Part shown: piece after piece, positions 8,850 through 10,349 of the stretch
Numbering within the stretch: position 1 is the stretch's first letter
How the letters are laid out: each line of letters starts with the position of its first letter
Assembly: GCF_003334815.1 (NCBI RefSeq)
Contig: NZ_QOWO01000021.1
DNA from: Escherichia coli
Lineage (GTDB): Bacteria; Pseudomonadota; Gammaproteobacteria; Enterobacterales; Enterobacteriaceae
DNA length: 64,000 nucleotides
Reading direction: 5' to 3' (one strand)
Made by a program: the position numbers and the translations under genes
Notes under the pieces: model-generated
What the model was told of the DNA's origin: nothing
Seen by the model: the letters and a program-made list of their open reading frames with translations, nothing else
The model's database searches: none

Positions 8850-10349
8850 ATGAATATCAGAAAGCTGTTTTATACGGACAATATATCCCGGATTTTATTG
8901 TTTTTATTCTTCCCGGGCATGTGTGTAATAACCACTGCTGCATGCGGATACACTGAGAAGAATTCCACCGGGAATGTGTTGCTGCTGTTTCTCCTTCTGA
9001 TTCTTGCACACAGAAATACCCTTACATCCATTACAGCTCTGTTATTTCTGTTCTGTTGTGCACTGTATGCACCTGTCGGTATGACGTACGGAAAAATCAA
9101 CAACAGTTTTATTGTCGCGTTGTTGCAGACCACGGCGGATGAGGCTGCGGAGTTTACCGGGATGATTCCTGTTTATCATTTTCTGGTCAGTGCCGCGATT
9201 CTGGTGTTCATGGTTATTTTCTGGCGGACACACCACCGTGGTCAACGTAACGCGATGGCTCTGTTGTTATTCGTATTATGCTCTGTAAACAGCTGGCCGT
9301 TACGGATGGTTAAAGGAACAGTTGTGGGGACAACTGACACATTGCGTGAAATGCAGCGTTATGAACAACTGAGTCGGCACGGTGCTGACAGCTGGAAAAT
9401 CCTGCCGGGAGCACCATTATATGACACGATTGTTATTGTTACTGGTGAGAGTGTCCGCAGGGATTATATGTCGGTATATGGTTATCCCGAGCCAACCACA
9501 CCATGGCTGAATACTGCTCCCGGTTTATTTATTGACGGTTATACATCGGCAGCAGCCAGCACCGTGCCTTCCCTGAGCCGGACACTGATTTATGACTATG
9601 AGCAGAACCCTGATTCAGGCAACAACGTGGTGGCGCTGGCAGCAAAAGCAGGATACAGCACATGGTGGATATCCAATCAGGGAAAACTGGGAGAGCATGA
9701 CACACGCATCTCTGTTATTGCTTCTGATGCGGACCATACTGTTTTCCTCAAGAAAGGCAGCTTTGCTTCCCGTAAAACGGATGACATGTTGTTGTTACAG
9801 GAAACAGAACGTGCGCTGACAGATACATCCACTCCGAAGGTGATTTTCCTGCACATGATGGGGTCTCATCCGAACCCGTGTGATCGGCTTCACTCCTGGC
9901 AGAATAATTACCTGGAGCAGTATTCCCGAAAAATTGCCTGTTATCTTGCCAGCATCAGTAAACTGGATAACTTTCTTGGTCAGCTTGATGGTATCCTTCG
10001 CCGACACTCACGTCATTTCGCCATGCTTTACTTTTCTGACCATGGGCTGTCGGTCAGCGACAGTGCTAATCCTGTTCATCATGATGGTCATGTGCAGGGA
10101 GGCTACAGCGTGCCCCTGATTATTACCGCCAGTGATATAACCTCTCATCAGTCCCTCAGCAGAAAAATCAGTGCCCGTCATTTCACAGGTATTTTTCAGT
10201 GGCTGACCGGTATTCGTACCGAAAATATACCGCCATTCAATCCACTGACAGACGAAGATAATGAACGCATTATGGTTTTTAACGGAGAGAGGTATGTACA
10301 GGAAGACAGTCTGAAACCGCAGCCGCTTATTCTTCCGGACCACAAGTAA
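8850..10349 (+). CDS. Phosphoethanolamine transferase / sulfatase-family inner-membrane protein (EptA/YhbX/MCR-like fold)
   Basis: N-terminal hydrophobic helices then soluble domain with GESVRRDYMSVYGY (matches the GE[TS]xRxD[HY]xSxxGY catalytic-region pattern of pEtN transferases) and HMMGSHP metal-site motif. Confidence 0.75.
   Translation: MNIRKLFYTDNISRILLFLFFPGMCVITTAACGYTEKNSTGNVLLLFLLLILAHRNTLTSITALLFLFCCALYAPVGMTYGKINNSFIVALLQTTADEAAEFTGMIPVYHFLVSAAILVFMVIFWRTHHRGQRNAMALLLFVLCSVNSWPLRMVKGTVVGTTDTLREMQRYEQLSRHGADSWKILPGAPLYDTIVIVTGESVRRDYMSVYGYPEPTTPWLNTAPGLFIDGYTSAAASTVPSLSRTLIYDYEQNPDSGNNVVALAAKAGYSTWWISNQGKLGEHDTRISVIASDADHTVFLKKGSFASRKTDDMLLLQETERALTDTSTPKVIFLHMMGSHPNPCDRLHSWQNNYLEQYSRKIACYLASISKLDNFLGQLDGILRRHSRHFAMLYFSDHGLSVSDSANPVHHDGHVQGGYSVPLIITASDITSHQSLSRKISARHFTGIFQWLTGIRTENIPPFNPLTDEDNERIMVFNGERYVQEDSLKPQPLILPDHK

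Follow-up and report, generated by a model that had tools for sequence, protein, structure and literature searches.

The window (the entire stretch of 64,000 nucleotides of Escherichia coli DNA that was analyzed) contains the following consecutive elements: a tRNA-Phe gene, a P4-type integrase, a phosphoethanolamine (pEtN) transferase, and a Hek-type adhesin. The tRNA-Phe (GAA) gene on the minus strand (12131..12206) is pheV, the integration site of a genomic island; beyond it lies yqgA (12312-13019), followed by speC (13357-15552). On the other side, pheV is adjoined by a P4-type tyrosine integrase of 421 amino acids (10668..11933, minus strand; NF007246, 248 bits), which is convergent with the transferase gene and matches the annotated integrase in the identical locus of EC556. 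The transferase gene (8850..10349, plus strand) is an intact, uninterrupted open reading frame with an ATG start, located exactly as in the initial annotation, and encodes a 499-aa putative pEtN transferase of the YjgX/PEAX family (OpgE-like). Upstream of it, the adhesin gene (7949..8698, plus strand) encodes a 249-aa outer membrane beta-barrel adhesin/invasin of the Hek/Hra1 type from the Hra/Hek/Tia family, which confirms the previously noted adhesin-type neighbor. This protein shares 95% amino acid identity with the outer membrane protein encoded at leuX in UTI89, the position where a review places Hek, and 67% with an annotated Tia (74% nucleotide identity to tia). The module of adhesin, transferase, and integrase is delimited on its inner side by what is left of another P4-type integrase, immediately upstream of the adhesin gene (7550..7780, minus strand). 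This remnant represents the C-terminal part, with 63% identity to the intact integrase at residues 352-416 of the latter; the EC556 annotation lists it as a partial integrase, and an equal layout is present at selC in another strain.

The G+C content is 0.45-0.48 in the island part of the window and about 0.50-0.55 in its core part. The combination of a tRNA gene, a tyrosine integrase, deviant G+C, and strain-variable cargo characterizes the locus as a tRNA-associated genomic island with a P4-type integrase, and the island-borne location proposed for the transferase gene was thereby upheld. The window contains no second copy of the pheV 3' end that could serve as the distal att repeat, and the island extends past its left end; the sole att-like match (36836) is weak, with three mismatches, lies on the core-genome side of the tRNA gene, and is at chance level.

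Of the complete E. coli genomes, 1449 possess the transferase gene and 1366 the adhesin gene, and in 1337 the two are contiguous. The contiguous pair was found at pheV, pheU, leuX, and selC with equal gene order at all four sites, and gene order and strand are constant in all cases. Even a Salmonella locus keeps the pair, although the identity of its two proteins to those of the window is no more than 53-57%. The two genes are also listed together in published island descriptions. They form a small mobile module composed of a Hek/Hra/Tia adhesin, the transferase, sometimes one variable gene, and a P4 integrase, which many E. coli islands carry at their tRNA-proximal end. The adhesin neighbor had been singled out as notable; the adjacency is real, but the pairing is a widespread module and is not peculiar to this island. 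Neither gene has a defence-system match in PADLOC. A phage-gene origin of the transferase was rejected, since a search of a phage collection returned only weak matches (23-28% identity, about half of the protein covered).

In the Pfam search, residues 193-445 of the transferase match the Sulfatase domain (PF00884, E 4e-36), and residues 44-143 weakly match EptA_B_N (E 6.5e-4). Among solved structures, the best sequence match is E. coli EptC (E 1e-18). The AlphaFold2 model (pLDDT 91.6, pTM 0.85) retrieved the periplasmic domain of the same protein as the best Foldseek match in PDB (E 1e-18); the top matches were EcEptC, MCR-1, NmEptA, and CjEptC, and full-length MCR-1 (9nww) and NmEptA (5fgn) aligned over 539-561 columns. 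The protein is divided into a membrane domain (residues ~1-190) and a periplasmic catalytic domain (~190-499). Hydropathy and the helices of the model predict transmembrane helices at about 11-31, 39-53, 57-80, 108-127, and 135-145, periplasmic helices at 85-105, and a bridging helix at 149-175; the basic loop RTHHRGQRN (126-134) and the hydrophobic segments fit the positive-inside rule. The predicted structure is that of an alkaline-phosphatase/sulfatase-fold periplasmic domain behind an inner-membrane domain of about five helices. By its domains and conserved residues the protein belongs to the pEtN transferase superfamily (COG2194-type), with pEtN transfer as its putative activity. Both the assignment to this family and the smaller size relative to EptA and MCR agree with the initial annotation.

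The segment GESVRRDYMSVYGY occupies residues 199-212 of the transferase, and HMMGSHP residues 335-341. The catalytic set (E200, T238, H340, D397, H398, H411) is kept and lines up in alignments with the motifs of EptA, EptB, EptC, and MCR-1. Among 53 family members, down to 24% identity, the residues E98, G199-E200-S201, T238, H335, G338-S339-H340, D397, and H398 are invariant, and H411 is at least 90% conserved; no loss of metal-binding residues, which would have spoken against the assignment, was observed. E98, located in the periplasmic helices, belongs to the motif QT(N/T)xxEAxEF, which aligns with its EptA and EptC counterparts. E200 aligns with the metal-ligand Glu (E246 of MCR-1 in the published numbering), and T238, in the context AAAST, aligns with the invariant nucleophile Thr of pEtN transferases. 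The residue following the metal-ligand Glu varies by subfamily: GETS in EptA, GETT in EptB, GETA in MCR-1, and GES in EptC, YhbX, and OpgE. The Ser of GES had been taken for the counterpart of the catalytic Thr, which proved incorrect: on the alignments, this motif carries the predicted metal-binding Glu, and the predicted nucleophile is T238, not S201.

The closest characterized homolog is OpgE (YbiP), the pEtN transferase of osmoregulated periplasmic glucans in E. coli (PMC3818809), with 32% identity over 456 aa (BLASTP, E 9e-75). The other E. coli paralogs are more distant: YhbX (2e-28), EptC (8e-24), EptB (2e-11), and EptA (6e-9). In a neighbor-joining tree, the transferase clade is adjacent to the OpgE clade and apart from EptA and EptB. 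Both proteins (499 aa versus 527 aa in OpgE) combine a compact membrane domain with a periplasmic domain and possess the GES and HxMGSHP motifs. However, OpgE orthologs across Enterobacteriaceae show 57-96% identity to the E. coli protein (most of them 72-88%) and are located almost always beside ompX, whereas the transferase is 32% identical to it and its gene is accessory, at tRNA islands. The YjgX/PEAX clade is the sister group of OpgE, and the transferase is not an OpgE ortholog. A housekeeping YhbX or YbiP, considered at the outset as a possible identity, is incompatible with the identities of 26% and 32%, respectively, and with the accessory distribution. A search of genome contigs returned mostly OpgE orthologs with ompX-opgE synteny (33-36% identity to the transferase); a small number of YjgX-like genes came from Acinetobacter, Rosenbergiella, and Buttiauxella, and adhesin or integrase neighbors were absent throughout.

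EptC/CptA, the pEtN transferase for heptose I of the LPS core (PDB 5ZZU/6A82), provides the best fold match (E 1e-18, TM 0.72-0.75 on the target) and the best NCBIfam family, but the score of 109.9 bits is below the cut-off of 404 (NF007933), and that for the CptA model NF012179 (87.8 bits) is below its cut-off of 900. Only the catalytic domain aligns with EptC, at 25% identity, and EptC is larger (577 aa), with a larger membrane domain. The transferase has in common with EptA/PmrC and MCR-1 the Glu, Thr, and Asp-His residues plus two further His, the architecture of five transmembrane helices with a bridging helix, and presumably the ping-pong chemistry; it differs from them by an identity of ~20% (E 6e-9 for EptA, 6e-5 for MCR-1) and by a Ser in place of Thr after the metal-ligand Glu. 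Lpt-O/Opt, the plasmid-borne O-antigen pEtN transferase of Shigella flexneri (PMC3458804), offers a functional analogy only, as a mobile membrane pEtN transferase of ~500 aa acting on a surface glycan. It was rejected as a relative (the protein from pSFxv_2 gave BLASTP E-values of 0.11 with the transferase and 0.77 with OpgE), and the record of pSFxv_2 annotates it as LTA-synthase-like. The AFDB fold search also revealed 'Pet1' from capsule K loci of A. baumannii (34% identity); no function was transferred from this protein, as it has no established role in capsule synthesis. Other members of the group include a plasmid-borne paralog near espP in STEC plasmids (52% identity, no adhesin neighbor) and the E. 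coli variant P0012 (65% identity).

In K-12, the transferase gene exists as the pseudogene yjgX, of which the window contains the intact form; further published names are peaX and 'putative opgE' (in ExPEC pap islands), and all three are found beside a P4-type integrase and an adhesin gene. While the copy in the window is intact and located at pheV, the K-12 copy is truncated and frameshifted (90.5% nucleotide identity over nt 314-1500) and located beside intB/leuX (KpLE2 region), which we take to be the position of the yjgX pseudogene. The UTI89 allele shares 91.6% amino acid identity with the transferase, and peaX of O157:H7 NADC 6564 was reported to be 99% identical to the UTI89 ORF (PMC6408774). 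The allele in the window is a minority variant, with at least 99% identity in only 72 records, most alleles being 90-95% identical. Near-full-length copies are present in 1449 of 5426 complete E. coli genomes (~27%), including UTI89 and ST131, while any match was found in 2729 genomes; since about half of the latter hold only truncated remnants, the gene appears to be often lost. IS elements are inserted around the gene in some loci. Full length is nevertheless the commonest form in the protein database, where the 499-aa cluster has 8941 member sequences. The dN/dS values among six E. coli alleles (0.07-0.20) show purifying selection and speak for a maintained function. The gene is already known, routinely annotated, and common in E. 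coli islands. Several database sources label its relatives 'lipid A phosphoethanolamine transferase', and some label them sulfatase or arylsulfatase. In the literature, no biochemical or genetic test of the YjgX/PEAX clade was found; an HNP-1 screen used a ΔyjgX mutant of K-12, which possesses only the pseudogene, to control for false positives.

Between the adhesin and transferase genes, a terminator-like hairpin CCCTGCAGT...ACTGCAGGG with a T-rich tail (8754..8787, plus strand) was identified, the stem of which is kept in all six aligned E. coli alleles. It is followed by a weak sigma-70-like promoter match, TTCACA-16-TATTCT (8793..8820, plus strand), 30 nt upstream of the transferase ATG, which is a match to the consensus only. 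No Shine-Dalgarno sequence is evident before this ATG. Another terminator-like hairpin with a T run (10478..10502, plus strand) is located 130 nt downstream of the stop codon. Because of the upstream hairpin and the lack of an evident Shine-Dalgarno sequence, expression of the transferase may be low or conditional. The numbers of PhoP-box and PmrA-box matches in the window (161 and 100, respectively) are close to the shuffled expectation (137±11 and 120±13). One PhoP-like site with two mismatches (8779-8795) overlaps the tail of the upstream hairpin, and the window scan revealed no PmrA-like site near the gene.

We propose, with a probability of roughly 70%, that the gene encodes a functional accessory pEtN transferase of the YjgX/PEAX clade acting on a glycan-type acceptor by the following mechanism. 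The enzyme would reside in the inner membrane with a cytoplasmic N-terminus and about five transmembrane helices, and a lipid-binding site for its donor, phosphatidylethanolamine, may be provided by the periplasm-facing helices with the E98 motif. The periplasmic domain would bind Zn2+ via E200, T238, D397, and H398; T238 would attack the donor phosphate and become covalently linked to pEtN, which would then pass, assisted by H340 and H411, to a hydroxyl or phosphate of the periplasmic acceptor. The most likely acceptor is a glycan sugar, either in the periplasm or at the surface (candidates are OPG-type glucans and sugars of the LPS core, O-antigen, or capsule), and lipid A phosphates are not the likely target. 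We infer the donor and the ping-pong chemistry by analogy with EptA, MCR-1, and EptC, and the acceptor class from the closest characterized paralog, OpgE, a glycan being the best guess. Two points weigh against the acceptor assignment: an identity of 32% is too low for its confident transfer from OpgE, and a second glucan enzyme would be redundant in E. coli, which already has OpgE.

Given the genomic pairing, the transferase might instead be a dedicated partner of the Hek/Hra/Tia adhesin, forming a functional unit in which pEtN would decorate the adhesin or the nearby LPS or glycan, and tune adhesion, autoaggregation, and antigenicity. Analogous activities are those of C. jejuni EptC on FlgG and Neisseria PptA on pilin, and the tight linkage described above spans divergent adhesins (Hek-like and Tia, at 67% amino acid identity) as well as the Salmonella locus. 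However, hes, which belongs to the same adhesin family, is when cloned sufficient by itself for hemagglutination and adherence of E. coli HB101 (PMC5539235), and the conserved hairpin splits the two genes. Moreover, the transferases beside Tia and Hek are near-identical (dS 0.08) whereas the adhesins are far apart (dS ~1.0), so that adhesin and transferase have not co-evolved. Distant members of the clade (at most 52% identity: plasmid, Erwinia, Enterobacter lignolyticus, and Acinetobacter) lack an adhesin neighbor, and the linkage could reflect joint hitch-hiking beside the integrase. Such a two-gene unit is, on this evidence, unlikely.

A considerably smaller chance is left for a mobile lipid A pEtN transferase similar to EptA or MCR, which would confer resistance to polymyxins and cationic peptides by making lipid A less negative. 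The superfamily, the catalytic residues, and the two-domain architecture are indeed common with EptA and MCR-1, the gene is on a mobile element, and its relatives bear the lipid A label in databases. Nevertheless, the NCBIfam scores are only 21-31 bits for MCR models (cut-offs 1075-1250) and 42-72 bits for EptA/lipid-A models (cut-offs 500-660), the similarity to EptA is limited to 21% identity over the catalytic domain, and the clade goes with the glucan enzyme OpgE rather than with EptA and EptB. Full-length copies are as frequent as noted above, and colistin resistance is rare in E. coli. The single phenotype in the literature is that of the peaX carrier NADC 6564, which was still colistin-susceptible, with a non-significant difference in MIC (0.66 versus 0.41 µg/mL; PMC6408774). 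The possible polymyxin relevance raised in the initial annotation was therefore not borne out, and a link of the transferase to polymyxin resistance is unsupported.

That the gene is a non-functional passenger, decaying at the integrase end of the islands, is very improbable: K-12 and many other strains indeed hold only truncated, frameshifted copies, IS elements insert around the gene, and a Shine-Dalgarno sequence is not evident, but the 499 codons in the window are unbroken, every invariant family residue is kept, and both the dN/dS values and the predominance of full-length database entries speak for maintenance. Least probable of all, and barely credible, is another enzyme of the alkaline phosphatase superfamily, either a sulfatase/hydrolase or a phosphoglycerol transferase of the OpgB/LtaS type, as might be suggested by the name of the Pfam domain, the sulfatase labels of some relatives, and the LtaS-type structures and sulfatases lower in the Foldseek list, because T238 lies in the context S-T-V-P-S-L-S-R and not in the formylglycine motif C/S-x-P-x-R of sulfatases, pEtN transferases occupy all top ranks in both the sequence and the structure searches (EcEptC at 1e-18, versus 4e-9 for LtaP and ~1e-9 or weaker for sulfatases), the N-terminal family of EptA/B is recognized in the membrane domain, and similarity to the LtaS-like Lpt-O is not detectable.

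Between a quarter and a half of E. coli genomes possess the transferase gene, which shows no sign of conferring polymyxin resistance and is not to be flagged as mcr-like. Of interest are an entire clade of pEtN transferases under purifying selection with a putative envelope substrate, and, as the only open lead, the almost constant coupling of its gene to that of a known adhesin/invasin on the integrase side of pathogenicity islands. If the accessory transferase modifies the cell surface, adhesion, serotyping epitopes, and recognition by phages and the immune system could change in ExPEC and LEE-negative STEC. If the two-gene unit is true, it would represent a new surface-modification accessory to a widespread ExPEC/STEC virulence factor, which could shift sensitivity to serum and antimicrobial peptides, phage and antibody recognition, adhesion, and autoaggregation, and could explain the appearance of 'putative opgE' alongside pap in genome-wide association matches.

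The YjgX/PEAX-family phosphoethanolamine (pEtN) transferase gene is an uninterrupted ORF of 499 codons with an ATG start (8850-10349, + strand). Its product contains a Sulfatase/alkaline-phosphatase-fold domain at residues 193-445 (Pfam, E 4e-36), a weak EptA_B_N membrane-domain match at residues 44-143, and the motifs GESVRRDYMSVYGY (residues 199-212) and HMMGSHP (residues 335-341). Among solved structures, E. coli EptC matches its sequence best (E 1e-18), ahead of MCR-1 (about 6e-5) and Neisseria EptA, in that order. The intact ORF, the Pfam domain and the EptC match therefore establish the gene and its family motifs as genuine, far above the chance level, and bear out the pEtN transferase family proposed in the initial annotation. 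None of the NCBIfam models matched at its cut-off: the highest score was to the CptA/EptC subfamily (110 bits vs a cut-off of 404), and the EptA and MCR models gave 42-72 bits (cut-offs 500-660) and 21-31 bits (cut-offs 1075-1250), respectively.

Five K-12 paralogues from NC_000913.3 were compared with the transferase by BLASTP. The nearest is clearly OpgE/YbiP (E 9e-75; 32% identity across 456 residues, almost the entire protein), followed by YhbX (E 2e-28, 26%), EptC (E 8e-24, 25%, catalytic domain only), EptB (E 2e-11) and EptA (E 6e-9). In a neighbour-joining tree of 29 sequences, the transferase belongs to a clade of ~500-aa proteins from E. coli, Salmonella, Erwinia, Pantoea, Enterobacter, Aquitalea, Acinetobacter and Snodgrassella, with the OpgE clade as its sister and YhbX, then EptA/B/C, outside. 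Orthology with OpgE was rejected, as 32% identity compares with 57-96% (most 72-88%) to E. coli OpgE among true orthologues from about 65 Enterobacteriaceae species. In almost all of these species (loci L016-L089, and L009 in K-12) opgE is convergent with ompX, usually at a distance of a few hundred bases and in a few species of 1-2 kb. Both core opgE and the island-borne transferase gene adjoin a gene for a small beta-barrel outer-membrane protein, which may be a coincidence or an old association. An AFDB match, A0A097I5F6, is Acinetobacter baumannii Pet1 (34% identity to the transferase); three types of A. baumannii capsule K locus have its gene flanked by gpi and pgm, and its role in capsule synthesis was stated as unestablished.

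In a family alignment of 53 sequences reaching down to 24% identity, E98, G199-E200-S201, T238, S241, D312, H335, G338-S339-H340, Y365, Y394, D397, H398 and P422 are invariant, and conservation reaches 90% or more at H411, C344 and C364. Alignment with EptA, EptB, EptC and MCR-1 identified E200 as the counterpart of the metal-ligand Glu (MCR-1 E246, published numbering) and T238 as that of the nucleophilic Thr (MCR-1 T285), with H340 and D397/H398 at the positions of MCR-1 H395 and D465/H466. Therefore, the nucleophile is not the Ser of 'GES', which was initially proposed as the equivalent of the catalytic Thr; the residue following the metal-ligand Glu is Ser in EptC, YhbX, OpgE and the transferase clade, and Thr in EptA, EptB and MCR. 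The sulfatase formylglycine motif C/S-x-P-x-R is absent from the transferase. The AlphaFold2 model built from the family alignment is confident (pLDDT 91.6, pTM 0.85) and comprises helices 11-31, 39-53, 57-80, 85-93, 96-105, 108-127 and 135-145, a long bridging helix (149-175) and an alpha/beta catalytic domain. In Foldseek, the model matched the periplasmic domain of EcEptC (E 1e-18) and aligned with full-length MCR-1 (9nww) and NmEptA (5fgn) over 539-561 columns. Within about 190 aa, the compact membrane domain has the same elements as that of EptA, and its periplasm-facing motif QT(N/T)xxEAxEF, which includes E98, aligns with EptA/EptC motifs; the basic N-terminus and the basic loop 126-134 are predicted to place the catalytic domain in the periplasm.

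The window represents the E. coli chromosome around pheV, a tRNA-Phe(GAA) gene (12131-12206, - strand) followed by yqgA and speC and adjoined by a P4-type integrase gene (10668-11933, -). Everything to the left of the integrase and tRNA is island DNA, and the island context is confirmed by these two genes and by the lower G+C content (0.36-0.48 vs about 0.50-0.55). The closest complete genome, of pig strain EC556, is 100% identical across the transferase gene and shares the layout, apart from an inserted IS3 that separates the transferase gene from the outer-membrane protein gene. From left to right, the island encodes a 1093-aa DEAD/DEAH helicase with weak PbeA and type I/IV restriction-enzyme matches (208-3489, +), a 440-aa protein without a family match (3585-4907, +) and a 327-aa protein annotated as '5'-nucleotidase' (5408-6391, +) that matches the PDC-S08 candidate defence family (PADLOC, E 1.7e-134); together, these three genes resemble a defence cluster on the island that carries the transferase. 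A further gene encodes a phosphorothioated-DNA-binding restriction endonuclease homologue (6583-7389, -; NF045808, 382 bits), and its EC556 counterpart has an internal stop and is annotated as a pseudogene; dptFGH or dnd genes are present in other islands carrying the adhesin and transferase genes.

Of the new results, the most informative is that the transferase gene is linked to an adhesin gene. The 249-aa ORF upstream (7949-8698, +) encodes a Hra/Hek/Tia-family adhesin/invasin. It shares 67% identity with an annotated Tia and 95% with the outer-membrane protein encoded at leuX in UTI89, the site that a review assigned to Hek. Megablast against 5426 complete E. coli genomes matched the transferase gene in 2729, at up to five places per genome and almost always on the chromosome. 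Coverage was at least 80% in 1449 genomes for the transferase and 1366 for the adhesin, and the 2.4-kb unit of both genes is recovered as one contiguous stretch in 1337. The order tRNA, integrase, at most one variable gene (for an AAA-domain or TPR protein), transferase, adhesin recurs at four sites: leuX in UTI89 (Hek, adjoining pap), pheU in AVS0786 (Tia, adjoining pap), pheV in STEC1587, the window and EC556, and selC in EC7072022BGR; the transferase gene is directly beside the integrase gene, as in the window, in 668 genomes. The adhesin gene of the window abuts what remains of a second P4-type integrase gene, a C-terminal fragment (7550-7780, -; 63% identity to residues 352-416 of the intact one), and the selC locus also has a remnant directly upstream of the adhesin gene. 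This shared arrangement, 'integrase remnant, adhesin, transferase, integrase, tRNA', suggests that the unit stacks onto, or recombines into, resident islands via integrase genes. Given the four tRNA sites and the remnants, the adhesin-transferase-integrase unit behaves as a small module stacked on older islands. A Salmonella locus has a 57%-identical transferase with a 53%-identical adhesin-family gene directly upstream; relatives at 52% identity or less had no adhesin-family neighbour in the loci examined.

The gene is very common and already annotated and named (yjgX, peaX or 'putative opgE'), with all copies labelled 'phosphoethanolamine transferase' by PGAP. The K-12 MG1655 copy is 5'-truncated, contains frameshifts and stops, and lies beside IS2, intB and leuX, at what we take to be the position of the yjgX pseudogene. 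A 52%-identical paralogue of 511-514 aa is common on STEC/IncF-type plasmids near espP, and 641 Escherichia plasmid records matched, most in the <60% identity band; on pO104_H7 (L003) the paralogue (6920-8455) is near espP and a hok/gef gene and has no adhesin neighbour. 'Plasmid A' of E. coli strain C5 (L004; NZ_CP010123.1, 1-11084), recorded as a 214-kb IncF plasmid, carries the same island segment with the helicase, 5'-nucleotidase, adhesin, transferase (100% aa identity) and integrase genes, and reflects either movement of the island to a plasmid or a misassembled record. In bloodstream isolates, 'putative opgE' adjoins integrases and the pap operon, and linkage made it a hit in a genome-wide association study (PMC8946752). 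The 39-kb tRNA-Leu element of O157:H7 NADC 6564 was described as carrying peaX/PEAX alongside an adhesin gene and dnd/dpt genes, and the ORF was reported as 99% identical to that of UTI89 (PMC6408774). No functional study of yjgX/peaX was found in the literature.

Among six intact E. coli transferase alleles, dN/dS was 0.07-0.20 at dS 0.08-0.25 (Nei-Gojobori), and intact copies are therefore under purifying selection. The alleles beside Tia and Hek hardly differ (dS 0.08), but the Tia and Hek genes themselves are far apart (dS about 1.0), which points to recombination between the adhesin and transferase genes and argues against enzyme-adhesin co-evolution. Co-transcription is uncertain, because the genes are separated by a hairpin with a T-rich tail, its stem kept in 6/6 aligned E. 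coli alleles, and by a weak promoter match following it, and no Shine-Dalgarno sequence is evident before the transferase start. The corresponding intergenic region of a Salmonella enterica contig (L093) has a 10-C run ~50 nt before the first base of the transferase gene (7001). The E. coli alleles lack this run, which may be phase-variable like the tracts known from certain pEtN transferases of Neisseria and Haemophilus. The conserved pairing leaves room for joint action of the two proteins, which we consider unlikely; it is countered by hes, a gene from the same adhesin family that, when cloned, is functional by itself in E. coli HB101.

By analogy with EptA, MCR-1 and EptC, the enzyme would follow the standard pEtN-transferase cycle, in which phosphatidylethanolamine docks at the interface of membrane and periplasm, T238, activated by Zn, gives rise to a pEtN-enzyme intermediate, and pEtN is handed to the acceptor. 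The possible polymyxin relevance suggested initially is unsupported and relevance to lipid A highly improbable, with scores far below the EptA and MCR cut-offs and NADC 6564 susceptible to colistin (MIC 0.66 vs 0.41 ug/mL, not significant; PMC6408774). OpgE, the nearest characterised enzyme, modifies periplasmic glucans (PMC3818809), and EptC, the next nearest by structure, acts on the LPS core heptose, whereas the lipid A enzymes are the most distant; by analogy, these relationships favour a glycan acceptor. The substrate of the transferase clade and its relation to the Hek/Hra/Tia adhesins represent the one lead worth bench work.
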